Positions 3,255-31,584 of a DNA stretch of 32,000 bases are shown here, one piece after another (position 1 is the stretch's first letter; each line of letters begins with the position of its first letter). The DNA lies in the NCBI RefSeq assembly GCF_000341895.1, contig NC_020409.1, positions 2,910,001 to 2,942,000 on the forward strand, read 5' to 3'. The notes beneath the pieces are model-generated. The model did no database searches. It was not told the origin of the DNA and saw only the letters and a program-made list of their open reading frames with translations. Origin of the DNA: Pseudodesulfovibrio piezophilus C1TLV30. GTDB lineage: Bacteria > Desulfobacterota > Desulfovibrionia > Desulfovibrionales > Desulfovibrionaceae. A program made the position numbers and the translations under genes.

Positions 3255-6200
3255 ATGCTTCGTTTTTCCGATATCCCCATTCGTCAGAAACTCATATTTC
3301 TTTTTCTTGTTACGGGTATCATCCCATTGCTTATTGTCGGGGTTGTTTCCAATACGCTGACCGTGAAAACCTTGATAAAAAAATCCTTTGAGGAGCTGGG
3401 ATCAGTCCAGGCGATTCGGAAGGAACAGGTCGAGAAGGCTTTTGACGCACGAGTCACCGATATGAGCCTTCTGTCTGAAAGTGCACAGGTGCACAAGGCG
3501 TTGGCGACCCTGCTGGACTATAAAACAGCGGTCAATGGTCTGGCTGAGTTGGATCTGGATGTCACCACGGCGGAGTATCATACCCTTCATAAGCAATTGT
3601 CACCCGTTTTCAGGAAGTTTATCAAGGAATACGGGTACTACGATTTATATCTTATGGATGCAGACGATGGGCATGTGTTGTATTCCGTTTTGCGGGAAGA
3701 AGATATTGGGACCAATCTTGTTACTGGCCCCTTTAAAAATTCCCGGTTGGCTGAGATGTGGCGCAAGGTTGTTTCCACTGGCCGGGAAACCGTGGTTGAT
3801 TTTGGGAAATATGAACCGAGCGGAGGTATCCCCTCGGCGTTTATCGGTATCCCTGTCAGGAACGATGCACATGCCATCATCGGAGTCTTCGCTTTGCAGG
3901 TGCAGAGTCAATTCATCACTTCATTGATGGATTCCCGTGTGGGATTGGGAAAGACCGGAGAGTCCTACCTGCTCAACTGGGACCCGCTGACCGACCTTTT
4001 CGAGCTGCGTAGCAATATGGAGACCATGGGCAAGGGAGATTATGTCGTCGGTTATGCGCTCAATCGTCATCTCGACTACTGGGAAGACGCAGTGGAAGCG
4101 GGGCAGCTTGGCGGGCATAATACCTACAAGGATAGTGAAGGCAACGAAGTCCTGGTCGCCTACGACAAGCTGAGTATCCAGGGGTTGAACTGGTATCTCA
4201 TTTCAAAGATCAACAAGAGCGAAGTCACGGCTCCGACGCAGGAATTGACTTTCAAGATCCTGGTCCTGGCAGCGGGCCTCGTTTTGATCATCGCTTTTGT
4301 TGCCTGGTTCATTTCCCGGCGAATTACCCGGCCTATTCTGGAAGATGTCCGGTTCGCCAAGGATATTTCCAATGGAGCATACGACACGGTCCTGCATCTC
4401 GATCAACGGGATGAATTGGGGCAGCTCGCTGAAGCGCTCAATTCCATGGCCCGTAATCTTGCAGACCAGCATTGGCTTAAATCCGGGAAGGAAGGCCTTG
4501 ATGACGACCTGCGGGGTGAGCACGACCTTGGCTTGTTGGCCAAGCGATTCGTCAAGTTTTTCGTGACGCACATGAACGCTCAACTCGGCGCGTTATATCT
4601 GAGTGATGGCGAGAAACTCGATTTGGCGACAAGTTATGCTTTTACGGACCGGCGGGGTAATTTCAATTCCTTCAATATGGGTGAAGGCATGGTCGGACAG
4701 GCTGCATTGGAAAACGAAACCATTCTTTTCTCCGATGTTGATCATGGTGCGCCGGAAGTCAATTATGGTGCAGGACAGACCATGCCGTCCAATTTTATGA
4801 TTACTCCCATAGCGTCGGAGGGTGTGGTTCTGGGAGTCCTGCTGGTCGGTTCTTTGTCACCATTTACGGACTTGCAGAAACGGTTTGTTGAAATGAATTC
4901 CGAAAATGCCGCGATTCTGTTCAACGCAGCCCAGTCCAGAGAAACGATTCGCAAATTGCTTGACGATGCTCAGGAGCAGCAGAAAAAGCTGCATCTGGCA
5001 AATAAGGAGCTTGAGGAACAGGCTCGGGCGCTCAAAGAATCCGAAGCCGAATTACAGGCCCAGCAGGAAGAGCTGCGGGTCACCAATGAGGAATTGGAAG
5101 AGCAGGCCAAGGCGCTCAAGGAGTCGGAATCAATTCTCCAGGCCCAGCAGGAGGAACTGCGGGTCACCAATGAGGAACTGGAAGAGCACACCCAGACTCT
5201 GGAAGAGCAGAAGGATGCCATCCGCAAAAAGAATTCCGAACTGATCAAGGCTCAGGAAGTGGTTAAGCAAAAAGCCCACGACCTTGAGATTGCCAGCAAA
5301 TACAAGTCAGAGTTTTTGGCAAACATGTCCCATGAATTACGGACGCCACTCAATTCCATTCTTATTCTGTCGCAACTTTTCGGCAACAACAAGGATGGGA
5401 ATTTAACGCCCAAGCAGATTGAATCCGCCATGGCTATTCATTCTTCGGGATCAGACCTTTTATCATTGATCAACGAGATTCTTGATCTTTCCAAGGTGGA
5501 GGCTGGGAAAGTCGAGCTGGTTATCGAGGATATTCCGGTTAAAACTATTGTCAATGATATCAGACGAATGTTTAAAGATGTTGCGGCAGACAAGGGGCTG
5601 GCATTTGATGTTTCCGTGGCGCCCGGATTGAGCGAGACGATCAAGACTGATTCCCAACGGCTCCATCAGGTTCTCAGGAATTTGCTGACCAATGCTTTTA
5701 AGTTTACTCGGCAGGGGCTTGTTGCCCTGACAATCGATCGCCCTTCACCCGAGCGGACGCCAGATTGGCTGAGCCAGGAATCTGCTTTTTCCTTTGCAGT
5801 TCGAGATGAAGGCATCGGAATTCCTCAAGAACAACAAGTCGCGATCTTTGAGGCATTTCAACAGGCGGACGGCTCAACGAGTCGGAAATATGGCGGAACC
5901 GGTCTTGGATTATCTATTTCCAAAGAGTTGGTCAAACTGTTGGGCGGTGCCATTTATCTCGAGAGTGAAGAGGAAAAGGGCAGCACGTTTACGATCGTTT
6001 TGCCCGAGAAATACGTTCCGCTCGCCACACGAGCGCAGGCCGAGTTCCCATCGTCACGGATTGAGGAAGAGCAAACCGGGGAAGAGTCTTTCCAGGCCGA
6101 AGCCCTTTCGCCGGAGAACGCGGTGCCCAGTGCTGTCCATTTCGAGGATGAGGAGCCTGTTCTTCATTTTGAAGCCTCGGGGGACGAATCAAGAAGGACG

Positions 6201-7436
6201 AACGTTGCATCACGACTTCCCTCCGCTGAATTTGTCGAGGATGACCGCAACGAGGTTGTCCCTGAGAGTAAAAGCCTTCTGATAATTGAGGATGACGTTA
6301 ATTTCGCCAAGATCATGCGTGACTTTGCTCAGGAACGTTCATTCAAGTGCATCGTTGCCGAAGATGGTGAAACCGGATTGCATTTTGCTGACTTCTATAA
6401 ACCGAGTGCGATCATTCTTGATATAGGGCTGCCTGGTATTGACGGCTGGACTGTCATGGAGCGGCTCAAGGACAATCCGGAATTGCGGCATATTCCTGTT
6501 CATTTCATGTCCGCAGCAGACTCTTCGCTGGATGCCATGCGTATGGGGGCGGTGGGCTTTTTGTCCAAGCCTGTCTCATTGGATAAGGTTGCTGACGCTT
6601 TCGGGCGAATTGAAAATGTTATATCCAAGCCCGTGTCCAAGCTTTTGCTCGTTGAGGATGACGCCATCCAACGTGAGAGTATTCAGCAACTTATAGGGAA
6701 TGGCGATGTGGAAACCGTTGCTGTGGCAACAGGGCATGAGGCCTATGAAGAGCTGAACAAGGGAGTGTATGATTGCATGATCCTTGATCTCGGTCTTGAG
6801 GATATGTCCGGGTTTGATCTGCTGGAAAAAATCCGTCGGAGTGACACGACCTCCCGAGTGCCGATTATTGTCTATACCGGCCGGGACCTCACCCGCCTTG
6901 AGGAAAACAAGCTCAATCGATACGCTGAGTCTATCATCATCAAGGGGGCGAAATCGCCTGAACGGCTCTTGGATGAGTCAGCCCTGTTTCTGCATCGTGT
7001 GGAATCCGAACTGCCTGAAGACAAGCAGAAGATGCTCAAGATGGTCCATGACAAGGAAGCAGTCCTTTCCGGGAAGACTATTTTGTTGGTCGATGATGAT
7101 ATGCGTAATGTCTTTGCCCTCTCAAGTGTGCTGGAGGAAAAAACCATGGATGTGGTTATAGCCAGAAATGGGCTGGAAGCCATCGACAAGCTCAAGGAGC
7201 ATGACGAAATTGACCTTGTGCTTATGGATATCATGATGCCTCTGATGGATGGCTACGAAGCTATGCAGGCCATTCGCAAGGAACATAAATATGCAAAGTT
7301 GCCCATGATTGCGCTGACAGCCAAAGCCATGAAGGGTGATCGCAGCAAATGCATCGAAGCCGGTGCCAATGATTACCTGGCTAAGCCGGTCAACACGGAC
7401 AAACTGCTCTCCATGCTGAGGGTGTGGCTTTACTAA
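3255..7436 (+). CDS. Hybrid sensor histidine kinase: TM - periplasmic Cache-like domain - TM - HAMP - GAF - long coiled coil - HisKA - HATPase_c - acidic linker - REC - REC - REC
   Basis: 1393-aa ORF.
- TM1 at residues 13-32, about 300 aa periplasmic region, TM2 at residues 335-354.
- HAMP at about 355-405 (DELGQLAEALNSMARNL).
- GAF at about 425-555.
- Coiled coil at about 563-680.
- H-box MSHELRTPLN, His693 at nt 5331.
- N-box NLLTNAFKFT; G-boxes DEGIGIP and GGTGLGLSISK.
- Receiver Asp residues D1056 (nt 6420), D1178 (nt 6786) and D1325 (nt 7227).
- No HPt domain seen. Confidence 0.95.
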   Translation: MLRFSDIPIRQKLIFLFLVTGIIPLLIVGVVSNTLTVKTLIKKSFEELGSVQAIRKEQVEKAFDARVTDMSLLSESAQVHKALATLLDYKTAVNGLAELDLDVTTAEYHTLHKQLSPVFRKFIKEYGYYDLYLMDADDGHVLYSVLREEDIGTNLVTGPFKNSRLAEMWRKVVSTGRETVVDFGKYEPSGGIPSAFIGIPVRNDAHAIIGVFALQVQSQFITSLMDSRVGLGKTGESYLLNWDPLTDLFELRSNMETMGKGDYVVGYALNRHLDYWEDAVEAGQLGGHNTYKDSEGNEVLVAYDKLSIQGLNWYLISKINKSEVTAPTQELTFKILVLAAGLVLIIAFVAWFISRRITRPILEDVRFAKDISNGAYDTVLHLDQRDELGQLAEALNSMARNLADQHWLKSGKEGLDDDLRGEHDLGLLAKRFVKFFVTHMNAQLGALYLSDGEKLDLATSYAFTDRRGNFNSFNMGEGMVGQAALENETILFSDVDHGAPEVNYGAGQTMPSNFMITPIASEGVVLGVLLVGSLSPFTDLQKRFVEMNSENAAILFNAAQSRETIRKLLDDAQEQQKKLHLANKELEEQARALKESEAELQAQQEELRVTNEELEEQAKALKESESILQAQQEELRVTNEELEEHTQTLEEQKDAIRKKNSELIKAQEVVKQKAHDLEIASKYKSEFLANMSHELRTPLNSILILSQLFGNNKDGNLTPKQIESAMAIHSSGSDLLSLINEILDLSKVEAGKVELVIEDIPVKTIVNDIRRMFKDVAADKGLAFDVSVAPGLSETIKTDSQRLHQVLRNLLTNAFKFTRQGLVALTIDRPSPERTPDWLSQESAFSFAVRDEGIGIPQEQQVAIFEAFQQADGSTSRKYGGTGLGLSISKELVKLLGGAIYLESEEEKGSTFTIVLPEKYVPLATRAQAEFPSSRIEEEQTGEESFQAEALSPENAVPSAVHFEDEEPVLHFEASGDESRRTNVASRLPSAEFVEDDRNEVVPESKSLLIIEDDVNFAKIMRDFAQERSFKCIVAEDGETGLHFADFYKPSAIILDIGLPGIDGWTVMERLKDNPELRHIPVHFMSAADSSLDAMRMGAVGFLSKPVSLDKVADAFGRIENVISKPVSKLLLVEDDAIQRESIQQLIGNGDVETVAVATGHEAYEELNKGVYDCMILDLGLEDMSGFDLLEKIRRSDTTSRVPIIVYTGRDLTRLEENKLNRYAESIIIKGAKSPERLLDESALFLHRVESELPEDKQKMLKMVHDKEAVLSGKTILLVDDDMRNVFALSSVLEEKTMDVVIARNGLEAIDKLKEHDEIDLVLMDIMMPLMDGYEAMQAIRKEHKYAKLPMIALTAKAMKGDRSKCIEAGANDYLAKPVNTDKLLSMLRVWLY
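5028..5195 (+). repeat. Tandem in-frame 84-nt duplication inside the kinase coiled coil (2 x 28 codons)
   Basis: Unit 1 (5028-5111) encodes ALKESEAELQAQQEELRVTNEELEEQAK. Unit 2 (5112-5195) encodes ALKESESILQAQQEELRVTNEELEEHTQ. 23 of 28 residues are identical. The 17-aa core LQAQQEELRVTNEELEE is identical despite four synonymous codon differences (tta/ctc, gaa/gag, gag/gaa, ttg/ctg). Confidence 0.9.
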
Positions 7437-8270
7437 ATGCACGAATCCGAACTCATTGAAAACGAACGACTCGAAGTTAAGCTGTTGTTGGAAGCAATCT
7501 ACCTGAAATACGGGTATGACTTTCGCAACTATGCCTTTGCGCATACCAAGCGGCGGTTGGAACATCGGAAGTTGATGGACGGTATCGAGAACTATGCCAC
7601 GATGATCCATCGGATCATTTATAACGAATCCTTTTTCAACAAATTGTTGCTTGATCTGTCCATCAATGTCACGGAGATGTTCCGTGATCCATGGGTGTAC
7701 CTGAAAATCCGGGAACTGATTATTCCTCATTTGAAGACCTACCCATTTATCAAGGTCTGGCATGCCGGATGTTCTGCCGGGCAGGAGGTCTATTCCATGG
7801 GAATTCTCCTCGAAGAGGAAGGAATCAAGGACCGTTCTCAGATTTATGCTACTGATTTTAATGAATATGTTCTGAGTAAAGCTAAGATGGGGATTTACCC
7901 CATGGACCTCATCCGCGAATATACAGCCAATTATCAGAAAGCGGGAGGACGACACTCCTTTTCGGATTATTATACCGCTGATTACGATAATGTACTGATG
8001 AAACAGTCACTTAAGGATAAAGTGCTTTTTTCTTCGCATAATCTGGTCACTGATGGTGTCTTTGGTGAGATGAACATTATTTTCTGCCGTAATGTTCTCA
8101 TTTATTTCGATAAGGATTTGCAGAATCGAGTGTTTAATCTTTTCTATGATTCCCTGTGTCCTGGTGGATTCCTTTGTCTTGGTTCCAAGGAAAGTCTCAA
8201 ATTTTCTGGAGTGGCGGATAAGTTCGAGGTGGTTTCCGAACGCGAGAAAATATATCGGAAAAAACGATAG
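7437..8270 (+). CDS. cheR: CheR-type protein-glutamate O-methyltransferase
   Basis: 277-aa ORF starting immediately after the kinase stop (TAAATG). SAM-binding motif VWHAGCSAGQEVYSMGILLEE, FRDP motif and IFCRNVLIYFD are typical of CheR. Confidence 0.9.
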   Translation: MHESELIENERLEVKLLLEAIYLKYGYDFRNYAFAHTKRRLEHRKLMDGIENYATMIHRIIYNESFFNKLLLDLSINVTEMFRDPWVYLKIRELIIPHLKTYPFIKVWHAGCSAGQEVYSMGILLEEEGIKDRSQIYATDFNEYVLSKAKMGIYPMDLIREYTANYQKAGGRHSFSDYYTADYDNVLMKQSLKDKVLFSSHNLVTDGVFGEMNIIFCRNVLIYFDKDLQNRVFNLFYDSLCPGGFLCLGSKESLKFSGVADKFEVVSEREKIYRKKR

Positions 8271-8279
8271 GGTGGTGCC

Positions 8280-8867
8280 GTGATCGAAGAAAGACCATAC
8301 GATGCCGTGGTGATCGGCGTCTCAGCCGGGGGACTGGCTGCTCTGGAAAAAGTATTGCCTCGGCTTGATGCGGCTTTCCCCGTGCCTGTGTTCGTTGTAC
8401 AGCATCTTCGGCCTGATTCTGAGAACTATATGTCCCTGCATTTTGATCGGCGCTGCAAGGTTGCGGTAAAAGAGGCCGAGGACAAGGAAACACCGGAGCC
8501 GGGCACAGTCTATTTCGCGCCGCCGAATTATCATCTTCTCATTGAGCTTGAAAAAACCATGGCTCTTTCCGTCGAGGATCGGGTCAATTACTCCCGCCCG
8601 GCCATTGATGTTCTTTTTGGTACGGCGGCAGAGGCGTATCGAACCCGGCTTATCGGCGTGATCCTCACCGGAGCCAATTCGGATGGTGCTCAGGGGTTGG
8701 CCAAGATCAAACGTCTCGGCGGCCTGGCTATTGTCCAGTCTCCGGAGACGGCTGAGGCCGATGCCATGCCGTTGGCTGCCATTGCCGCTGCCGGACCTGA
8801 CCATGTGCTCCCGCTGGGGGATATCGGATACTTCATTAATTCATTGTTGATGGGTGAGACTTTATGA
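8280..8867 (+). CDS. cheB: CheB-type protein-glutamate methylesterase, catalytic domain only (no N-terminal receiver)
   Basis: 195-aa ORF with a GTG start 9 nt after the cheR stop. Catalytic triad contexts are present: GVSAGG (Ser), VVQHLRPD (His), TGANSDGAQG (Asp). Its length matches the C-terminal domain of canonical CheB only. Confidence 0.88.
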   Translation: MIEERPYDAVVIGVSAGGLAALEKVLPRLDAAFPVPVFVVQHLRPDSENYMSLHFDRRCKVAVKEAEDKETPEPGTVYFAPPNYHLLIELEKTMALSVEDRVNYSRPAIDVLFGTAAEAYRTRLIGVILTGANSDGAQGLAKIKRLGGLAIVQSPETAEADAMPLAAIAAAGPDHVLPLGDIGYFINSLLMGETL

Positions 8868-9859
8868 CCAAGGCAAAAATATTGATCGTTGATGATCGAC
8901 CGGAAAATCTTTTGACACTCGAAAGTCTGCTCGACAATCCTGATGTGGATGTTATCCGTGCCAATTCGGGCGGTGAAGCATTGGCCAAGACTCTGGACCA
9001 CGACTTCGCGCTCGTTTTGTTGGATGTCCAGATGCCGGATATGGATGGGTATGAGGTTGCCGAGTTGATGCGTGGCAATAAGAATACGAGGAATATCCCG
9101 ATCATTTTCGTGACTGCGAAGGTCGATAACATGAATCAGGTCTTTCGAGGATATGAATCGGGTGCAGTGGATTATCTTTTCAAGCCCCTTGATGCCAAGG
9201 TTTTTCAGAGCAAAGTGGGTATTTTTCTGGACCTCTTTCGACAGAAAGCACAACTGGAGCAGAAGACCAGAGAACTGGATGCAAAAGTTGTGGAGCTGGA
9301 AGAATTGCAGCAGATTTTGGAAGAGACCAATGAGCAGCTTCGTTTGCTTTCTGCCATGGATGGCCTGACCGGATTGCTGAATCGCCGCCGTTTCGACGAA
9401 ATCCTTCAGGAGGAATGGCAGCGGTGCCTGCGTGATGGTTGTCCCTTGTCCCTGCTTTTGGTGGATATTGACCATTTCAAGGCGTACAATGATTCGTACG
9501 GGCACCTCATGGGGGACAATTGCCTCAAGAAAGTCTCAGGCATGTTGGCAAATTCACTCCAGCGTCATGTTGACAAAGTCGCCCGCTATGGAGGGGAGGA
9601 ATTTACCATTGTCCTACCCAGCACGGATGAAGAAGGTGCCATGCAAGTGGCGGAAAGAATGCGTGCCAATGTCGAGGAACTGGGCATTGAGCACTGTGAT
9701 TCAGACACATGTGGCAATGTTACTATCAGCGTCGGTGTGGGGAGCGTGATGCCCAAAGCGGACGGTTCATCGCATAATCTTTTGGATCAAGCTGACAAGG
9801 CGCTTTACAAGGCTAAAAAAGAAGGCCGGAATCGTTGTTGCACCATACGCCATTGCTAG
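8864..9859 (+). CDS. Response regulator diguanylate cyclase (REC - coiled coil - GGDEF)
   Basis: 331-aa ORF whose ATG overlaps the cheB stop (ATGA). Receiver motifs ILIVDD and LLDVQMPDMDG. Active site RYGGEEF with an RxxD I-site (RHVD) 5 residues upstream. Confidence 0.93.
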   Translation: MTKAKILIVDDRPENLLTLESLLDNPDVDVIRANSGGEALAKTLDHDFALVLLDVQMPDMDGYEVAELMRGNKNTRNIPIIFVTAKVDNMNQVFRGYESGAVDYLFKPLDAKVFQSKVGIFLDLFRQKAQLEQKTRELDAKVVELEELQQILEETNEQLRLLSAMDGLTGLLNRRRFDEILQEEWQRCLRDGCPLSLLLVDIDHFKAYNDSYGHLMGDNCLKKVSGMLANSLQRHVDKVARYGGEEFTIVLPSTDEEGAMQVAERMRANVEELGIEHCDSDTCGNVTISVGVGSVMPKADGSSHNLLDQADKALYKAKKEGRNRCCTIRHC

Positions 9860-9875: not shown

Positions 9876-9923
9876 AAAAAGAAAAGGCGTGACAGAATAT
9901 TTCTGTCACGCCTTTTTATTTTC
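9876..9923. terminator. Bidirectional rho-independent terminator between convergent operons
   Basis: 12-bp perfect stem GGCGTGACAGAA (9886-9897) / TTCTGTCACGCC (9901-9912) with a 3-nt loop. It is flanked by an A-run upstream and TTTTTATTTT downstream, so it could terminate both strands. Confidence 0.75.
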
Positions 9924-9937
9924 TGTACAAGTCGTGG

Positions 9938-10921
9938 CTAGAGTCCCTTTTTGGGGTCAAAGTCCTGACCCAGAGCGGCTGGTGCTTCAATGGACCAGCC
10001 TTTTGAAAAGGATTTGAGGAAAGGATGGCGGCGAACAATATCCTGAATCCACCCCATGCGTCCCATGTTCACGGCCAGCAGGGTCAGAATCATCATTGGG
10101 AAGGGGGCAACTTGAAAGACCGGTGCCGGAATGGATGGGAAGATTTCTTGAAGGTAGATACCGGAAACCTGTAACCCGGCAAAAAAGAATGCTCCGAGTG
10201 CGGCCCGGACGGGGTGCCAGCCTCCGAAAATGACAATGGCCAGGGCGATCCACCCAGCTCCTTCACATCCCTGCGGTCGACCCCATCCGGTTTTTACCGC
10301 CAGGGAATATGCTGCACCAGCCATGCCGACCAGGGCTCCACCAGCGAGACAGTAAGAGAGTCGTACCAGACGGACTCGAATCCCTCGCCCGAAAGCCGCT
10401 CGTGGAGATTCTCCCACGGCGCGGAGGCGCATGCCTCCCTCGGTGCGATACATCCACCACCAACAGCCGAAAATAGCTGCAAGCCCCATGTATACCACAG
10501 GAGATTGAGAACCGAAGACAGGGCCAATGAGTGGTATGGAACCGATTCCCGGAATGATCCATAATCCGAGGTCCGGGCCCGGCTGGCGGGAGAAAGAGTG
10601 ACCCAGAAAGTAGGCCAGATCTCGGGAGAGCAGAGTCAGGATAAATCCAACAGCCAGTTGCGATTGGCCGAGATAGATGCCGATGACCCCAAGTATCCCG
10701 GCAATGGCCGCTCCTACGGCCATCCCTCCAAGGACACCGAGCCATGGGTTATCGAAGGTCGAAGAGATAGCGAAGGCCGTCATGGCAGCCAGCAGGATTG
10801 ATCCGTCCAGTGAGAGGTTGATGATACCGGCTTTTTCCGTGAGTGTTTCACCCAGGGTCGCCAATACCAGGGGAGCGCCTGCCAGTAAAATGGCCGCCAG
10901 AGTCAGACCGAAGGTTTCCAT
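9938..10921 (-). CDS. ABC transporter permease (BMP/nucleoside-sugar type)
   Basis: 327-aa highly hydrophobic multi-TM ORF. Its start overlaps the upstream permease stop by 1 nt (TAATG). Confidence 0.88.
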   Translation of the reverse strand: METFGLTLAAILLAGAPLVLATLGETLTEKAGIINLSLDGSILLAAMTAFAISSTFDNPWLGVLGGMAVGAAIAGILGVIGIYLGQSQLAVGFILTLLSRDLAYFLGHSFSRQPGPDLGLWIIPGIGSIPLIGPVFGSQSPVVYMGLAAIFGCWWWMYRTEGGMRLRAVGESPRAAFGRGIRVRLVRLSYCLAGGALVGMAGAAYSLAVKTGWGRPQGCEGAGWIALAIVIFGGWHPVRAALGAFFFAGLQVSGIYLQEIFPSIPAPVFQVAPFPMMILTLLAVNMGRMGWIQDIVRRHPFLKSFSKGWSIEAPAALGQDFDPKKGL

Positions 10922-11961
10922 TAATCAACCTCCCGGTGTTGTTGTATCCACAGGCGAATTCCCTGAACAATAAAGACCGAAAGGACCATAATTCCCTGAA
11001 TAACACCGGACAAGGATGAATCCAGTCCCAGTTGCAACGGAAGTTGGATGGAGCCGACATTGAGGATGGCAAAGAAAAGGCAGATGAAGGGCACCAACGA
11101 TAATCGGAAGGAAGCCATCATGCCGACCAGCAGGGCAGTATAGCCATAGTTGGATGAAATGGCTGGCAGAAGTCTGTGATAGACGCCGAGAACCTGGGTG
11201 GCTCCTGCCAATCCGGCCAAGGCGCCGCATATCATGAAGGATTGGAGAAGACGACGTCGCGGCCCGAGAGAGAAAAGGGTCGCGGCCTTGGGATTCTCTC
11301 CGACAGCACGCAATTTTAGTCCCCACTCAGTGCGGTGCATAAGAAAATATATGGCGAGAATGGCGGCACACGCCAAGGCGAGCGCAACTCCGCTGACTGA
11401 AAGTTTTCCCAGACGAGGGAGCCACAAGGAGAAATCAATCGGTTCTGTTCCGGACATGGAAGCAACGCCGGGCCGTTTCCATGGACCGAAAATAAGCCAG
11501 AGCGTAACCCCGAGCGCGACGAAATTCAGCCCTAGCCCTGAAAATATTTCGTGGACTCTTCCGAAAACCCTGAGGAGACCGGCAAGAAGCGCCCAAAAAG
11601 CTCCTCCGGCCATGGCTGCGAGCAGGGCCAAGGCAATCTGGAATGCCCCGCCATCATCATATGGTCGCAACGCCGCAGTAGCGAATATGGCTCCCATAAT
11701 AACCTGTCCTTCAACGCCGATATTCCAGAGCCTTGCTGTAAAGGGAATGAGCAGCCCCACAGAGCACAGGGTCAGGGGAACCCAGCCTGCCAGTACCCGG
11801 CCTATTTTGGACATGGATCCGACGCCACCCTTGAAAAGAACAAAGATGGTTTCGAATGGGGAAGCCCCGGAGGGTATCATGACCAGAATCGTCAAAAAAA
11901 GAGCCAGGGCCACAGCGGCCAGCAGCCATCCCACTTGTGTCAGGAGAGATTCTCGATTCAT
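10921..11961 (-). CDS. ABC transporter permease (BMP/nucleoside-sugar type)
   Basis: 346-aa multi-TM ORF with a 4-nt ATGA overlap with the upstream ATPase gene. Confidence 0.88.
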   Translation of the reverse strand: MNRESLLTQVGWLLAAVALALFLTILVMIPSGASPFETIFVLFKGGVGSMSKIGRVLAGWVPLTLCSVGLLIPFTARLWNIGVEGQVIMGAIFATAALRPYDDGGAFQIALALLAAMAGGAFWALLAGLLRVFGRVHEIFSGLGLNFVALGVTLWLIFGPWKRPGVASMSGTEPIDFSLWLPRLGKLSVSGVALALACAAILAIYFLMHRTEWGLKLRAVGENPKAATLFSLGPRRRLLQSFMICGALAGLAGATQVLGVYHRLLPAISSNYGYTALLVGMMASFRLSLVPFICLFFAILNVGSIQLPLQLGLDSSLSGVIQGIMVLSVFIVQGIRLWIQQHREVD

Positions 11962-13436
11962 CCTGCCTGCTCCATGACTTCATTAAAGGGCTTGCCTGCC
12001 ATGAGCGCTCCGACAACTTTTATTGAGGCGTCTTCCCGGTTCACGATTCCCGCAATGGCTCGGTCGTAAAAGACAATGATACGGTGGCTGTGCTCCAGGA
12101 CTTCATCCAGATCTGGTGAAAAGAAAATGAGGGATGCACCGTGAGCACACCGCCCTTTGAGATGATTCCAGACCTGTCTGGCGGAACCGGCATCCAAGCC
12201 GCGCGTGGGGTGTTCCATGAGCAGCAATTTGGTTTCGTCAGGGATCAGCGAGAGGAGCAAGCGTTGTTGATTTCCACCTGAAAGCTCACTGGCATTGGTG
12301 TCCGGGTGGGCGCGCAGGTTGAATCGGTCCATGCATTGGGTTTGGTAGAATTCGGTCAGATCACCTTTTCTTTCAGGAAAAGCAAGTTTGATATGTTCCA
12401 TGAGATTGAGGGCCGGAAAGAGAGCCATCTCTAATCTATCTGCCGGGACAAATTGAACTCCAGCTCTACGAAGTGTCGCGAAATCATTACTGGAATAATC
12501 TGTCTCATCCAGGGAAACTGCTCCAGAGGGCATCCTGTCCAGCCCACAGAGTCCGCGCAGGAAGAGTTCCTGGCCTGATCCGTCCAACCCCGCCAAACCG
12601 ATACATTCTCCTGGCTGCATGGAGAAATCCATGGGTCCCATGGAGTACTTTGGCCCGGCGAATGAAGTCTTGGACAAGGTTAATCGGGGAAGCTTCTTGT
12701 TCTTGTCAATTTCCGGGAGTGCATCAGCTTCTCCCTCGGCAGCGTCGCCGAACATGAGGGAGACAAGTTCCTTTTCCACATATGGCGGTTCTAGCGTGGA
12801 GACCAGTTGGCCTTGCCGCATGATGAAAATGGAATCAGCCATTTCATATGCTTCAGAAAGCTTGTGGGTGACCAGAATGATGGTGTGATTGTCCTCACGC
12901 GCCAACTTCATGAGCAGATCGAAGAGATCCTGTTTCTGTTCCGGTGTGATCCCGGTGGTTGGCTCATCGAGAATGAGGGTGGTTGCTCCGAGGTCGAGAA
13001 GGCGCAGGAGTTCGAGCAATTGCCTTTCTCCCACGGTCAATGAGGAGACCGGCTCATCCGGCAGAAAGCAGGCGTCCAGACGAAAAGACAGTTCCCCGAT
13101 AACATCAACGACTTCTTTTTTCGTCCTTTTGGGTGCACCTAGCTGAAAATTTTCCCAAACGGGCATGGCCGGAAAATCAAGAGGGTCCTGGTAAAGCATG
13201 CCAACACCGTGTTGTCGAGCCAACGCCGGAGTCAGAAACGAGCGTTTTTCATTGCGTATTGTCAGGGTTCCGGACGTTGGACGAGTATGACCTGCCAACA
13301 CGCGCATAAGTGTGGACTTGCCCGCGCCGTTTTCTCCGACAAGAGCGTAAATTCGGCCGGGTTCGAGAGTCAGGCTGATGCCGTCATTGGCCCGAACCCG
13401 GCCATAATGTTTGTGAATGTCTTTGAGGACTATCAT
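11958..13436 (-). CDS. ABC transporter ATP-binding protein with two fused ATPase domains
   Basis: 492-aa ORF. Domain 1: GENGAGKST, LTVGERQLLE, LILDEPT. Domain 2: degenerate P-loop GLDGSGQ, LSGGNQQRLLL, LLLMEHPTRGLD. This layout is typical of RbsA/NupA-type importers. Confidence 0.92.
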   Translation of the reverse strand: MIVLKDIHKHYGRVRANDGISLTLEPGRIYALVGENGAGKSTLMRVLAGHTRPTSGTLTIRNEKRSFLTPALARQHGVGMLYQDPLDFPAMPVWENFQLGAPKRTKKEVVDVIGELSFRLDACFLPDEPVSSLTVGERQLLELLRLLDLGATTLILDEPTTGITPEQKQDLFDLLMKLAREDNHTIILVTHKLSEAYEMADSIFIMRQGQLVSTLEPPYVEKELVSLMFGDAAEGEADALPEIDKNKKLPRLTLSKTSFAGPKYSMGPMDFSMQPGECIGLAGLDGSGQELFLRGLCGLDRMPSGAVSLDETDYSSNDFATLRRAGVQFVPADRLEMALFPALNLMEHIKLAFPERKGDLTEFYQTQCMDRFNLRAHPDTNASELSGGNQQRLLLSLIPDETKLLLMEHPTRGLDAGSARQVWNHLKGRCAHGASLIFFSPDLDEVLEHSHRIIVFYDRAIAGIVNREDASIKVVGALMAGKPFNEVMEQAG

Positions 13437-14612
13437 TTATTGAGGGCTGGAGAGTCCTTTCATACCTTCAAGCAGCTGAGGCATGTACCAAATCTGTTTG
13501 TCCGTGGCTGTTTCACCTGCTTTCAGGAACGGAGTGCCGTCCTGATAGTTGAGCGGACCAGTGAAAAGATCCAGGTCGCCGGACCCGAGCTGGGCGATGA
13601 ATTCATCAAGCTTGGCTCTGGTCTCGGAAGACATGCCGGGACCGGGCATGAAGCCAACGGGCGACTTGTCATGGTCATTGATATTTGCCCAGTACGGAGC
13701 ATCCCATTCAAAGGATGGCTCGTAATTCCCGTCCTGAACCTGTGTGACCAACCGCAGGAAGGTCGGTCCCCAATTGAAATAGGGAACGCCGAGGCAAATA
13801 TCGCCTTGGCCCTCACATCCTTTTTCATAATCGTATGGAAGTGCCCAGACCTGCTTGCCAGCCTCGCGGCGTTGCTTGGCGACTGTCACTGCCTCTGGGG
13901 TATCGATACCGGAGATAAGGACATCACAGCCGGAGTCGAAAAGGGAACCGGCTACCTGGGTCGGGTCCGCGGTAACACCGGGAATATTGAACCAGAATCC
14001 GATCCATTTGACGTTGAAAGTCAGGTCTTTGATATCCTTGCCACGGACTTTGGTCCATGCATGGACTGCTCCGAGATAGGCTGACGCGATAAGGCGGCGG
14101 GTCTCTTCATTGATAAGGGGGCCAACAACACCGATCTTGCCGGTTTGTGTGGTCATGGCGGCAGTAAAGCCAGCCATCATCTTGGAATATTCCATGCGGC
14201 CGAAGACATTTCCGAGATTTTCAGGTGCCTTTCCGGACCATACTGAGTCACCGGAAGCATGCACAAAAGTTGTTTCTGGATGCATGGCTGCGGCTTCGAG
14301 GATACCGTCTTTCATGTCGTCGGAGCCTGCGATGATCAGGTCTGCTCCTTTTTCAATCAGGTCGTCAGCGACCTGGGGGATAGTCAGGCCCGGACGGTCT
14401 GCCGGATTGACTTTGTCGAGGAAAATCATTTTGGCACCGGGCATGTGGGCTTCAACGTATTTGCCTCCCTCATATTGGGCCTGGCTGTAGCCTTTGTCAT
14501 TGTAGGGGCCGACCAGGATCAGACCAAGAGTAAAGTCCTTGGCCATGGCAAGTCCGGGCACGAGCAGCAAGGCCATGAGCGCCGAAGCGATCAGCAAGCG
14601 AAATTTTAACAT
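13437..14612 (-). CDS. BMP-family (basic membrane protein/PnrA-like) ABC substrate-binding protein
   Basis: 391-aa ORF. Signal peptide MLKFRLLIASALMALLLVPGLAMA. LGLILVGPYNDKGYSQAQYEGG resembles the N-terminal BMP motif. Its stop abuts the ATPase start. Confidence 0.82.
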   Translation of the reverse strand: MLKFRLLIASALMALLLVPGLAMAKDFTLGLILVGPYNDKGYSQAQYEGGKYVEAHMPGAKMIFLDKVNPADRPGLTIPQVADDLIEKGADLIIAGSDDMKDGILEAAAMHPETTFVHASGDSVWSGKAPENLGNVFGRMEYSKMMAGFTAAMTTQTGKIGVVGPLINEETRRLIASAYLGAVHAWTKVRGKDIKDLTFNVKWIGFWFNIPGVTADPTQVAGSLFDSGCDVLISGIDTPEAVTVAKQRREAGKQVWALPYDYEKGCEGQGDICLGVPYFNWGPTFLRLVTQVQDGNYEPSFEWDAPYWANINDHDKSPVGFMPGPGMSSETRAKLDEFIAQLGSGDLDLFTGPLNYQDGTPFLKAGETATDKQIWYMPQLLEGMKGLSSPQ

Positions 14613-20361: not shown

Positions 20362-21414
20362 CTATTCGCCAGCGTCTCCGGCTTCAACTTCTTCAGGGGC
20401 ATCTCGGTATCCGAGATGTGTCATCAGTTTTTCTTCAATGGAACCTGCTATATCAGGATTTTCTTGAAGCAACTGTCTGACATTTTCCTTGCCCTGTCCG
20501 AGCTTTTCCGAACCATAGGCAAACCATGAGCCTGATTTTTCTATAATCCCATGTTCGACGCCCATGTCTATGAGTTCGCCCATGCGACTGATTCCCTGGC
20601 CGTATAGGACATCGACAAGGGCTTGACGGAAGGGCGGGGCGATCTTGTTCTTGACAATCTTGATGCGCGCACGAATTCCGTATGATTCTTCCTTGTCCTT
20701 CAGTGTCTGGATGCGGCGGATATCCAGTCGGCATGAAGCGTAGAATTTCAGCGCGTTTCCACCGGATGTCGTTTCCGGGTTGCCATAGCCGGTCATGCCG
20801 ATCTTCATACGGATCTGGTTGATGAAGATGACGACACAATTGGACTTGTGAATGGTGCCTGTGAGTTTTCTGAGTGCGTGTGACATCAATCGAGCCTGAC
20901 CACCCACCTGGGTCTCACCCATCTGGCCTTCCAGTTCCGCTTGCGGGATGAGCGCGGCAACCGAGTCGATGACCACGACATCGACAGCCCCGGAGCGGAC
21001 AAGCAGGTCTGCGATTTCCAGGGCTTGTTCGCCATAGTCTGGTTGCGATATCAGCAGTTCGTCCGTCTTGACCCCCAGGCGTTTTGCATAGCCGGGATCC
21101 AGAGCATGCTCGGCATCGATAAAGGCGGCATTGCCACCAGCTTTCTGAGCTTCGGCAATAATGTGCAGAGCCAGTGTTGTCTTACCGGATGATTCCGGGC
21201 CGAAGATTTCGATAACGCGTCCGCGCGGCACGCCACCAATTCCCAGGGCCATATCAAGGCCGATGGAACCGGTGGGAATGAACGGAATGGAGTGCGATGC
21301 CTCATCGTCAAGCCGCATGATTGACCCCTTGCCGAACTTGCGTTCGATAGAGGTAAGGGCGGTTCCGAGCGCTTCTTTGCGCAAGACGTCGGGGTCGACG
21401 ACTTTACGTGCCAT
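20362..21414 (-). CDS. recA: Recombinase RecA
   Basis: 350-aa [16 protein letters not shown]-loop, FIDAEHALD and VVIDSVAAL motifs, acidic C-terminal tail, AAGGAGA RBS. Confidence 0.98.
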
Positions 21415-28926: not shown

Positions 28927-29586
28927 ATGAGTAACGGATTTGAAACGTTCTTCAAGAGGCTGTGTTCGGAAACTGAAATACGAAATCAATCACAACTGGC
29001 TCGCGAACTGGAAGTAGGCAGAGCCGCTGTTTCTCTTGCCAAACGGAAAAATTCGGTTCCGGCACGCTGGATTCTGGATTTGGCTGCACGCTATGAACTG
29101 AATCCGCTTTGGCTTGAGCAGGGGGTTGGGCTTCCTCGTCAGACGTGTTTGGCTGAGGTGACCGAAGGGCCGGAGGCCTACCAGGAAGTCCCCAAGGTTC
29201 GGGCGCGTTTGTGCGCGGGTGGCGGGTCTTTCGAGACCGAAGGGATAGTGGAAGGATATTATTCATTTCGTGCGGACTGGCTGAATACGCGGGGGAATCC
29301 GTCAAACATGGTTTTGATGGAAGTCATTGGAAATTCCATGGAGCCGGAGATCAAGGAAGGGGACATGGTCCTCATTGATGAATCCCGTACCGATGTCCTG
29401 TCTGGTGGTATTTACGCTGTCGGTGTGGAGGATACGGTGATGGTCAAACGGGTGGAGCGATTGCCCGGAACTCTCGTGCTTCGAAGTGATAACCTGGACT
29501 ATGCTCCCATCCATTTATCCGGCGATGAATTGAACAATGTCCGAGTTATAGGCAAGGTCCTTTGGATATCCAGGGAGTATCGGTAA
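28927..29586 (+). CDS. CI/LexA-like transcriptional repressor (phage-CI-type HTH plus S24 self-cleaving peptidase domain)
   Basis: 219-aa ORF. N-terminal HTH QSQLARELEVGRAAVSLAKRKNSVPARWILDLA resembles the phage CI repressor. A candidate Ala-Gly cleavage site lies in RARLCAGGGSF. Catalytic Ser is in IGNSMEPEI and catalytic Lys in VMVKRV. Confidence 0.85.
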   Translation: MSNGFETFFKRLCSETEIRNQSQLARELEVGRAAVSLAKRKNSVPARWILDLAARYELNPLWLEQGVGLPRQTCLAEVTEGPEAYQEVPKVRARLCAGGGSFETEGIVEGYYSFRADWLNTRGNPSNMVLMEVIGNSMEPEIKEGDMVLIDESRTDVLSGGIYAVGVEDTVMVKRVERLPGTLVLRSDNLDYAPIHLSGDELNNVRVIGKVLWISREYR

Positions 29587-30603: not shown

Positions 30604-31584
30604 TTATTGCCTGAGAGAGTCTGGACCACGCAAAGTCATGCTTTTCGTTCGATTCCTGCCCTGTTGCTTGGCCTGGTAGAGTGCTCTGTCCGCAGCATGG
30701 AGGAGATTCTCAGGGGTTGTTTCACAGGCGGGCACACAGGAGGCGACTCCGATGGAAACAGTCACGGCACAACTCACCGACGACTGCGGATGCCTGATAC
30801 CCGATTGGGCCAAATTGGCATGTATGGTCTCAGCTACGGCAGATGCTCCCCGGCAGTCTGTGTCCGGGAGGATGACGACAAATTCTTCTCCGCCATAGCG
30901 GGCAACCATGTCACCGGGCCTGTGGACTGCATTCTTGATGGCTGCTGCCACGGCGCAGAGACATGTATCCCCATCAACATGACCAAGTGTGTCATTATAG
31001 GATTTGAAGTGGTCGATATCTATCATGATCAGGGCCATGGGCACATCCTGGCGCCCATTGCGTACCCATTCCTTGACGAGTGTGTCATCAAAACAGCGTC
31101 TGTTCGCCAATCCTGTCAGGCCGTCAAGGTTCGTCATTTTTTCAAGTTTATAGGCAAGCGTCTGCAGTTCCTGCTCCCGTTGCCTGCGTTTGGCCATTTC
31201 CCGTTTTAACTGGAGGGCGGAGCGTATCCGTGCTCTTAATTCGATTTTGCTGGGAGGTTTGATGATATAATCCGAAGCTCCGGCAGCAAAAGCCCGATCC
31301 AGATAGGCTTCATCGTCATGGGCGGTGACGATGATCACAGGCGTATCTTCAAACTCATATTGCGATTTGATCGTCAGAGTGGCGGCAATACCGTCTGTTC
31401 CGGGCAGAGATATATCCATGATAATGAGATCAATGGGAATTTCGGTTTTCCGAGAGTCGTTGAGTGCCTGCATGGCCTGTTCAAAATCATGCACTGCGAT
31501 GCTATCCGGGAAACCCGCCTGGTTCAGGACTTCCGAAATGTGCAGCGCGGTAGCGCGACAGTCATCAACGATAAGAATTCTCAT
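30604..31584 (-). CDS. Response regulator diguanylate cyclase (REC - coiled coil - GGDEF), orphan
   Basis: 326-aa ORF. Receiver motifs ILIVDD and IMDISLPGTDG. Active site RYGGEEF with an RxxD I-site (RPGD) 5 residues upstream. Same architecture as the gene at 8864-9859. Confidence 0.93.
   Translation of the reverse strand: MRILIVDDCRATALHISEVLNQAGFPDSIAVHDFEQAMQALNDSRKTEIPIDLIIMDISLPGTDGIAATLTIKSQYEFEDTPVIIVTAHDDEAYLDRAFAAGASDYIIKPPSKIELRARIRSALQLKREMAKRRQREQELQTLAYKLEKMTNLDGLTGLANRRCFDDTLVKEWVRNGRQDVPMALIMIDIDHFKSYNDTLGHVDGDTCLCAVAAAIKNAVHRPGDMVARYGGEEFVVILPDTDCRGASAVAETIHANLAQSGIRHPQSSVSCAVTVSIGVASCVPACETTPENLLHAADRALYQAKQQGRNRTKSMTLRGPDSLRQ

Follow-up and report, generated by a model that had tools for sequence, protein, structure and literature searches.

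We describe a four-gene operon of Pseudodesulfovibrio piezophilus C1TLV30, found in a 32,000-nucleotide stretch of contig NC_020409.1 (positions 2,910,001 to 2,942,000, hereafter the window), which encodes a transmembrane hybrid histidine kinase, a methyltransferase CheR, a methylesterase CheB without its receiver domain, and a diguanylate cyclase composed of a receiver (REC) and a GGDEF domain. In the textbook account, sensory adaptation is achieved through the reversible methylation of glutamates by CheR and CheB, and to our knowledge this mechanism has been considered specific to chemoreceptors that are coupled to CheA. In at least seven phyla, the kinase family described here has retained a CheR/CheB pair of its own, with no conserved chemoreceptor, CheA or CheW, and its members carry 28-residue coiled-coil modules in the stalk that precedes the catalytic core. 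We favour, with a probability of roughly 0.55, a mechanism in which the kinase is itself the methyl acceptor and the CheR and CheB of the operon act on these stalk modules. An earlier note on this DNA had put forward the kinase as methyl acceptor; the modular stalk, the constraint on CheR and the recurrence of Glu-Glu-Leu (EEL) heptads strengthen this proposal, while the match to the known methylation consensus is partial.

The four genes lie on the forward strand. The kinase gene (3255-7436, 1393 aa) was defined from the open reading frame (ORF) list, Pfam, the translation and the REC alignment, and its stop codon abuts the start of the CheR gene (7437-8270, 277 aa; Pfam, junction and residue check), so that the two codons read TAAATG at 7434-7439. 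The CheR stop codon (8268-8270) is separated by a 9-nt gap from the GTG start of the CheB gene (8280-8867, 195 aa; Pfam and alignment to Escherichia coli CheB), which in turn overlaps the start of the cyclase gene (8864-9859, 331 aa; Pfam, motif check and linker comparison) as ATGA at 8864-8867. Directly 3' of the cyclase gene, an intrinsic terminator with a 17-bp stem and T runs on either strand (9881-9917, both strands) closes the operon against convergent ATP-binding cassette (ABC) transporter genes, and no comparable hairpin was found inside the four-gene cluster. The four genes are one translationally coupled operon. The three junctions described in the earlier note were re-read in the sequence, the domain make-up it gave for the four proteins was confirmed by Pfam together with residue and motif checks, and its statement that the window has no methyl-accepting chemotaxis protein (MCP), CheA or CheW agrees with the Pfam scan of the other 20 ORFs (longest non-overlapping, at least 80 aa), where none of the three was found. 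Every detail that we checked in that note's description was correct.

The kinase comprises, from the N-terminus, a transmembrane helix, a dCache sensor, a second transmembrane helix, HAMP and GAF domains, a long helix, the HisKA domain with the phospho-acceptor His693, an HATPase domain and three REC domains. The periplasmic dCache_1-like sensor (aa 71-317, 3465-4205) is matched by Pfam with 39.4 bits, below the gathering score of 45, though the E-value of 6.5e-10 is significant, and in the translation hydrophobic segments lie on either side of it, near aa 12-34 and 333-355. HAMP (aa 352-403, 4308-4463) and GAF (aa 428-555, 4536-4919) were assigned by Pfam, and the kinase core (HisKA aa 684-751 and HATPase_c aa 799-918, 5304-6008) by Pfam and the position of the H-box, with His693 encoded at 5331-5333. 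The receivers (about aa 1003-1120, 1125-1245 and 1276-1388; 6261-7418) were delimited by Pfam and by alignment to CheY, in which the phospho-accepting Asp is kept in all four REC domains of the operon, three in the kinase and one in the cyclase. Pfam finds no histidine phosphotransfer (Hpt) domain in the 1393-aa kinase.

The segment between the GAF domain and the H-box was aligned for 67 kinases, and residue positions were tallied over 142 distinct modules. The stalk is an exact 28-residue repeat, equivalent to four heptads, with one to four modules per kinase. The module consensus is x-A-L-K-E-S-E-x-E-L-Q-A-Q-Q-E-E-L-R-V-T-N-E-E-L-E-E-Q/R-T/A, and its core (QQEELRVTNEELEE, "ELQAQQEELRVTNEELEEQxKALKES") is near-invariant: Q13 is present in 100% of the modules, N21 and L24 in 99%, Q14 and L17 in 95%, and E15 and E16 in 92% (n = 142). 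The kinase of the window has two canonical modules, A (aa 591-618, RALKESEAELQAQQEELRVTNEELEEQA, 5025-5108) and B (aa 619-646, KALKESESILQAQQEELRVTNEELEEHT, 5109-5192), preceded by a degenerate one (aa 563-590, 4941-5024) that keeps 'NKELEEQA'; all three were placed by register analysis and the family alignment. The distance from the end of the GAF domain to the His is 104, 132 or 160 residues in one series and 111 or 139 in the other, with a few outliers in divergent loci. The distances step by 28 and the two series are offset by 7. Every difference is a multiple of 7, so that the phase of the helix relative to the catalytic His is the same throughout.

We then compared the conservation of the kinase regions, expressed as the mean frequency of the commonest residue in 53 non-redundant kinases. 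The modules reach 0.76 and 0.83, against 0.54-0.56 for the stalk segments on either side of them, 0.85 for the dimerization and histidine phosphotransfer (DHp) domain, 0.69 for the ATPase domain and 0.42 for dCache, and the least conserved part of the kinase is the acidic linker after the ATPase domain (0.18). By this measure the modules equal the catalytic core in conservation. In a single-sequence AlphaFold2 model, aa 538 to 710 are predicted to form one unbroken helix, and the predicted local distance difference test (pLDDT) score over the modules is 84-94; the stalk helix call alone was taken from this model, as its GAF part is poor (pLDDT 25-50) and was left unused.

Each heptad has Leu at one core position, while the other core position is polar (E, Q, N or T). 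Dynamic signalling helices typically have polar residues (Q, N, T) in the 'a' positions of their core. Given this Leu/polar core, the Glu pairs, which are spaced 7 residues apart, would be exposed on the surface of the stalk. The candidate methyl-accepting pairs are E605/E606, E612/E613 and E615/E616 in module A, and E633/E634, E640/E641 and E643/E644 in module B; the degenerate module keeps E587/E588. The Q13/Q14 pair is probably structural, because it occupies g and a positions and persists in loci that have no CheB. A tblastn search of a plasmid collection with the module gave no matches, for which the low-complexity filter may be responsible.

Both enzymes look active, judging from their conserved residues. 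CheR is recognized by Pfam (CheR, 142.6 bits; CheR_N, 27.0 bits, exactly at the cut-off), keeps the equivalents of R53, R98 and Y235 as well as an AGCSAGQEVYS motif, and is 100% identical to the NCBI protein of P. piezophilus. CheB matches CheB_methylest alone (196.6 bits) and aligns solely to residues ~150-349 of E. coli CheB, the N-terminal receiver domain being missing; its S, H and D align to S164, H190 and D286, which leaves the triad intact. Its orthologues are 189-215 aa long, and a CheB without receiver is presumably constitutively active. The NCBIfam CheR equivalog scores 88.7 bits on the window CheR, so far below its cut-off of 435 that this protein is not taken as a chemotaxis orthologue, and the NCBIfam chemotaxis CheB model is also far below its cut-off. 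CheR is 29% identical to E. coli CheR and about 50% to the CheR of Pseudomonas-type clusters. Across the 36 loci that have all four proteins it is the most conserved, with a median identity to the window protein of 72%, compared with 57% for the kinase, 59% for CheB and 62% for the cyclase. This high conservation, together with the divergence from E. coli CheR, is as expected for a dedicated enzyme that faces an invariant substrate, and by these comparisons the CheR and CheB found here are a separate, dedicated lineage.

The operon was traced in other genomes from both of its ends. A scan with CheR over one genome per prokaryotic species gave 277 relatives, and the loci of the best 80 of these 277 were analysed; they are 61-85% identical and belong to at least seven phyla, their hosts including Desulfobacterota, Vibrionaceae/Ferrimonas, Thiotrichales, Rhodospirillales, Spirochaetes, Bacillota, anammox Planctomycetota and an Omnitrophota metagenome-assembled genome (MAG). 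Domains were mapped by phmmer in all ORFs within 10 kb of CheR; the queries were the domains of the window proteins together with E. coli Tar, CheA, CheW, CheB, CheR and CheY (taken from locus L081). The complete order kinase-CheR-CheB-REC_GGDEF is present in 47 of the 80 loci; many of the remaining 33 are on contigs that end too early, and a few loci have a REC-kinase in place of the cyclase. Non-synteny in related genomes, which the earlier note had named as an outcome that would speak against its proposal, is clearly not what the neighbourhoods show; the gene order is strongly conserved. As the cluster recurs in dozens of distantly related genomes, it is far beyond chance. No CheA was detected within ±10 kb in any of the 80 loci with the E. 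coli query, and no CheW either, although here the query was a single E. coli CheW in a set without positive control; the Pfam-annotated contigs agree. An MCP signalling domain occurs within 10 kb in 10 of the 80 loci, in none of them adjacent, and it is not conserved. We considered whether a Che or Wsp pathway is present in disguise and rejected this, since CheA and CheW are missing and MCPs are only sporadic.

From the side of the kinase, the 81-aa module region was used as a HMMER query on 1.84 billion representative proteins and gave 661 matches. The best 150 of the 661 are all GAF-module-kinase proteins, and the sensors of module kinases vary between dCache, CHASE3, 4HB_MCP and PAS. CheR or CheB fused to a module kinase was not found among these 150, and the expectation that the modules would be directly homologous to CheB/CheR-fusion proteins was not borne out. 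For a reverse look-up, module-kinase contigs were picked that are divergent or apparently non-hybrid. A CheR and a receiver-less CheB (189-211 aa) lie downstream of the kinase in 6 of 6 evaluable contigs (L082, L084, L086, L087, L088 and L089), whose Pfam-annotated neighbourhoods have no CheA, CheW or MCP; two further contigs stop at the kinase gene.

This kind of cluster is already known genetically from Pseudomonas, as cfcABCDE and bmsA. In P. putida KT2440, cfcA (PP_3761) encodes the hybrid kinase and cfcB/cfcC the CheR/CheB pair; His496 of CfcA is needed for the cyclase activity of the REC-GGDEF-EAL regulator CfcR, to whose receiver that of cfcD is closest, and a chemotaxis role of the CheR/CheB pair is reported as ruled out (PMC4951495). 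CfcA has a CHASE domain, two transmembrane helices, a GAF domain, the kinase and three receivers, and methylation is not mentioned in the work on it (bioRxiv 10.1101/2024.11.25.625174). The bmsA cluster of P. alkylphenolica is of the same kind. All have a sensor-transmembrane-GAF hybrid kinase with three receivers, followed by CheR, a receiver-less CheB and a REC-containing protein, and in Pseudomonas the kinase controls a REC-GGDEF(-EAL) cyclase and biofilm traits.

The operon of the window differs from cfc in three respects. Its sensor is dCache with HAMP, whereas that of Pseudomonas is CHASE3; it has two canonical modules and a degenerate one, whereas Pseudomonas has one canonical module plus degenerate ones; and CheB is followed by the cyclase, whereas in Pseudomonas it is followed by a REC-kinase of the cfcD type, with CfcR encoded elsewhere. 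Both variants, of the sensor and of the gene after CheB, occur within the wider family. The sequence-level comparison rests on Pseudomonas species other than KT2440, whose related kinases carry the stalk module 'LQVQQEELKTANEELEEQ'; the P. soli kinase has a His at 497, compared with H496 in CfcA. A CHASE3-type query matched Pseudomonas/Massilia CHASE3-GAF kinases with one canonical module in 110 of 118 cases, and the gene order in these genera is kinase-(REC)-CheR-CheB-REC_kinase. The locus described here is new in its dCache sensor and in having the cyclase within the operon. The earlier note could not tell whether homologous clusters had been characterised; they have been in part, for the kinase-cyclase link, which is shown genetically in P. 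putida.

In the Wsp system, WspA is an MCP, WspB and WspD are CheW proteins, WspE is a CheA, WspC a CheR, WspF a CheB with receiver, and WspR a REC-GGDEF cyclase. Like Wsp, the present operon combines methylation enzymes with a REC-GGDEF cyclase and a cyclic di-GMP (c-di-GMP) output, but the MCP, the CheW-like couplers, the CheA-type kinase and the CheB receiver have no counterpart here, and the kinase is a classical HisKA-type transmembrane sensor. The resemblance to the chemoreceptors Tar and Tsr is in the stalk, with surface Glu/Gln pairs placed 7 residues apart on a long coiled coil (Q295/E302/Q309 in Tar). Module positions 25-26 are in the heptad register of the Tar sites (EEQ[A/T]xAL versus EETAASM and EQQASAL), and in both the pair is followed by small residues at 'a' and 'c' and then by Leu (EEQAKAL in the kinase, EETAASM in Tar). 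In contrast to MCPs, the kinase lacks the signalling hairpin and the C-terminal pentapeptide.

CheR is also coupled to a non-MCP signalling protein in the CheB/CheR fusion proteins, which KEGG lists as 'two-component system, chemotaxis family, CheB/CheR fusion protein'. We searched for these with a 55-aa linker sequence of our own composition, so that the retrieved consensus is biased towards the query; it retrieved 118 proteins with up to 87% identity, many of them named "two-component system CheB/CheR fusion protein" by the Joint Genome Institute or containing PAS_10. Immediately downstream of the CheR domain, their linkers repeat the heptad [ST]xNEELx in chains, e.g. MQSVNEELQSTNEELETSKEELQSVNEELATVN, and the module heptad VTNEELE fits this consensus. 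In the fusions, however, the enzymes are joined in cis and about four heptads follow one another without interruption, a super-repeat of 28 residues being absent, whereas here the enzymes are separate proteins and the module stands between GAF and kinase. The likeness is a resemblance in heptad type, as read from the sequences, and does not imply homology. Putative acidic EEL-heptad helices nevertheless accompany CheR outside chemoreceptors in two independent architectures. A heptad-chain fragment also lies between a CheR gene and a PAS-GGDEF gene in locus L090, and in the same order in L091, where the gene is frameshifted. These CheR-linker-PAS-GGDEF genes are split into several ORFs (L090 3724-7261, L091 969-4937) and each is probably one gene of the CheB/CheR-fusion class that has been frameshifted or mis-assembled.

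The cyclase at the end of the operon is matched by Response_reg and GGDEF in Pfam (GGDEF 175.6 bits) and has the D57 equivalent, GGEEF at 243 and RHVD at 234 as I-site (RxxD five residues upstream). With 261 bits the protein falls short of the cut-off of the NCBIfam PleD equivalog (474), which indicates that it is not PleD itself. From the operon linkage, the intact phospho-Asp and GGEEF, and the Pseudomonas homologue, we infer that the operon kinase activates this cyclase.

In the mechanism that we propose, the dCache sensor, HAMP and GAF would control a dimeric histidine kinase through one long continuous helix, and the REC-GGDEF cyclase encoded last in the operon would receive phosphate from the kinase and then make c-di-GMP. 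CheR would methylate glutamates of the stalk modules, and the receiver-less CheB would remove the methyl groups. Neutralisation of the acidic heptads would alter the packing of the stalk and thereby shift the set-point of the kinase. Provided that CheR and CheB each favour one signalling conformation of the stalk, as they do with chemoreceptors, the c-di-GMP output would adapt, or have a memory, in a loop that would need no phosphorylation of CheB. The stalk as substrate, the modification of these particular glutamates and adaptation as the effect are what we infer. We give even odds to the broader proposal, namely that this is a true methyl-accepting histidine kinase, that EEL heptads form a portable 'methyl-accepting coiled coil' (used in cis in the fusion proteins), and that reversible glutamate methylation regulates bacterial sensor proteins generally, beyond MCPs.

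Several observations weigh against methylation of the kinase stalk. No report of a methylated or methyl-accepting histidine kinase was found in the searchable literature, and whichever EE pair is taken, the fit to the MCP consensus [ASTG][ASTG]xx[EQ][EQ]xx[ASTG][ASTG] is partial, with about 2 of the 4 positions for small residues matching. The known substrate geometry of CheR and CheB is the antiparallel four-helix bundle of MCPs, whereas a parallel two-helix stalk running into the DHp domain is expected here, and a signalling helix could be highly conserved on mechanical grounds alone. As the kinase is without Hpt domain, the phosphate would have to reach the cyclase directly from the His or via an unlinked Hpt protein. 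Five loci (L051, L053, L057, L061 and L066) have kinase, CheR and cyclase without CheB, and Thioploca, Thiomargarita and Beggiatoa-type genomes have CheR-CheB without a module kinase within 10 kb. In P. putida, the other cfc mutants, including those in cheR and cheB, keep the crinkly high-c-di-GMP phenotype (PMC4951495), which means that methylation is not required for kinase output under those overexpression conditions. Finally, P. piezophilus expresses at least one MCP, as reported in its genome paper (PMC3559428), and the search for Che proteins in this organism covered the 32-kb window.

One alternative is that the CheR/CheB pair serves ordinary chemoreceptors encoded elsewhere and is co-expressed from the operon, for example in order to retune chemotaxis at the shift to sessile life. 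We consider this unlikely. The retention of all catalytic residues in both enzymes would be explained by it, as would the MCP made by P. piezophilus (PMC3559428), the MCP gene within 10 kb in 10 of the 80 loci and the CheR-CheB pair of the giant sulfur bacteria that has no kinase nearby. Yet no conserved MCP stands beside the pair, CheA and CheW are missing in 80 of 80 loci, and the pair is linked to one kinase family across phyla from both search directions. CheR, moreover, is only 29% identical to E. coli CheR compared with 62-78% within the family, CheB lacks the receiver domain that couples CheB to CheA, and a part of the P. putida orthologues in chemotaxis is reported to have been ruled out (PMC4951495).

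Another candidate for the methylation target is a different member of the module, i.e. the cyclase linker, a receiver or an unlinked partner, and this we hold to be somewhat less probable still. The coiled-coil linker of the cyclase (aa 125-165, 'ELEELQQILEETNEQL') does echo the kinase module (EEL, TNE[EQ]L) and is common to close relatives, but the motif decays quickly beyond them, e.g. to 'ELEVLHKELEEKNQKL' or 'ELTELQKTNWNLE', so that the linker was downgraded as a conserved methyl acceptor. The output protein is also interchangeable, being REC-GGDEF here and a REC-kinase in Pseudomonas, Massilia and others, while the kinase module and CheR are constant throughout; the acidic linker after the ATPase domain is, with 0.18, the least conserved kinase part. 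The least probable of the alternatives is that the modules are a length-adjustable mechanical spacer, with CheR and CheB non-enzymatic, of other role or evolutionary passengers: module number does vary in heptad-preserving steps as for a rigid transmission helix, the polar 'a' residues (Q, N, T) of the core are those typical of dynamic signalling helices, and loss of cheR or cheB had no phenotype in the P. putida screen (PMC4951495), but the surface Glu pairs are near-invariant from Bacillota to Proteobacteria while the neighbouring stalk drifts, both enzymes keep their catalytic residues with CheR the most constrained of the four proteins, and EEL heptad chains recur beside CheR in unrelated fusion proteins.

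If the kinase is indeed methylated as proposed, ordinary two-component systems could adapt or "remember", and integral-feedback adaptation, known to date from chemoreceptor arrays alone, would extend to them. What adapts in this case would be c-di-GMP, and with it the choice of a motile or a sessile way of life. To specialists, a methyl-accepting histidine kinase would come as a surprise. The proposal names about a dozen candidate glutamates in two 28-residue modules, and a tractable system, CfcA/CfcB/CfcC of P. putida, belongs to the same family. It would also offer a possible reason why Pseudomonas CheR3-type enzymes have no chemotaxis role.

The loci of the CheR scan also show some variation in their gene content. 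In the loci without CheB, which belong to Desulfobacterium-type and Bacillota MAGs, the modules including the QQ pair are unchanged. A second, receiver-less kinase, whose 28-residue modules are more degenerate, stands directly upstream of the hybrid kinase in some Desulfovibrionaceae MAGs (L058 2848-5688, L069 2804-5566 and L080 2849-5758), which suggests two methyl-accepting candidates per CheR in these genomes. In L056, L059, L064, L065, L067, L074 and L078, which are the Thioploca, Thiomargarita and Beggiatoa-type loci without a module kinase within 10 kb, a CheR 62-64% identical to that of the window is usually accompanied by a receiver-less CheB, in neighbourhoods that are unrelated; the Parabeggiatoa loci L071 and L076 have kinases nearby.

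As to the identity of the window kinase, the best named NCBIfam models are BarA, HrmK and TorS, and all were rejected because they score far below their cut-offs. The HrmK model aligns to aa 549-1114, i.e. from the module region on, with 349.7 bits (cut-off 725), and Pfam HmpF gives weak matches on the module region of relatives (the kinases of L084, L086 and L087). HrmK and HmpF are from cyanobacterial hormogonium-motility systems.

The remaining features of note in the window lie outside the operon. The convergent ABC-transporter operon (9938-14612, reverse strand), which has the terminator at 9881-9917 in common with the kinase operon, encodes a Bmp/PnrA-like binding protein, a double ABC ATPase and two BPD_transp_2 permeases. 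A second REC-GGDEF regulator (30604-31584, reverse strand, 326 aa) has the phospho-Asp, GGEEF at 231 and, at the place of the I-site, RPGD at 222. None of the kinase genes of the window is linked to it, and the operon kinase could have it as a further target. A LexA/CI-like protein of 219 aa, with a CI-repressor helix-turn-helix and an S24 peptidase domain, is encoded at 28927-29586 on the forward strand, ~7.5 kb from recA (20362-21414, reverse strand).

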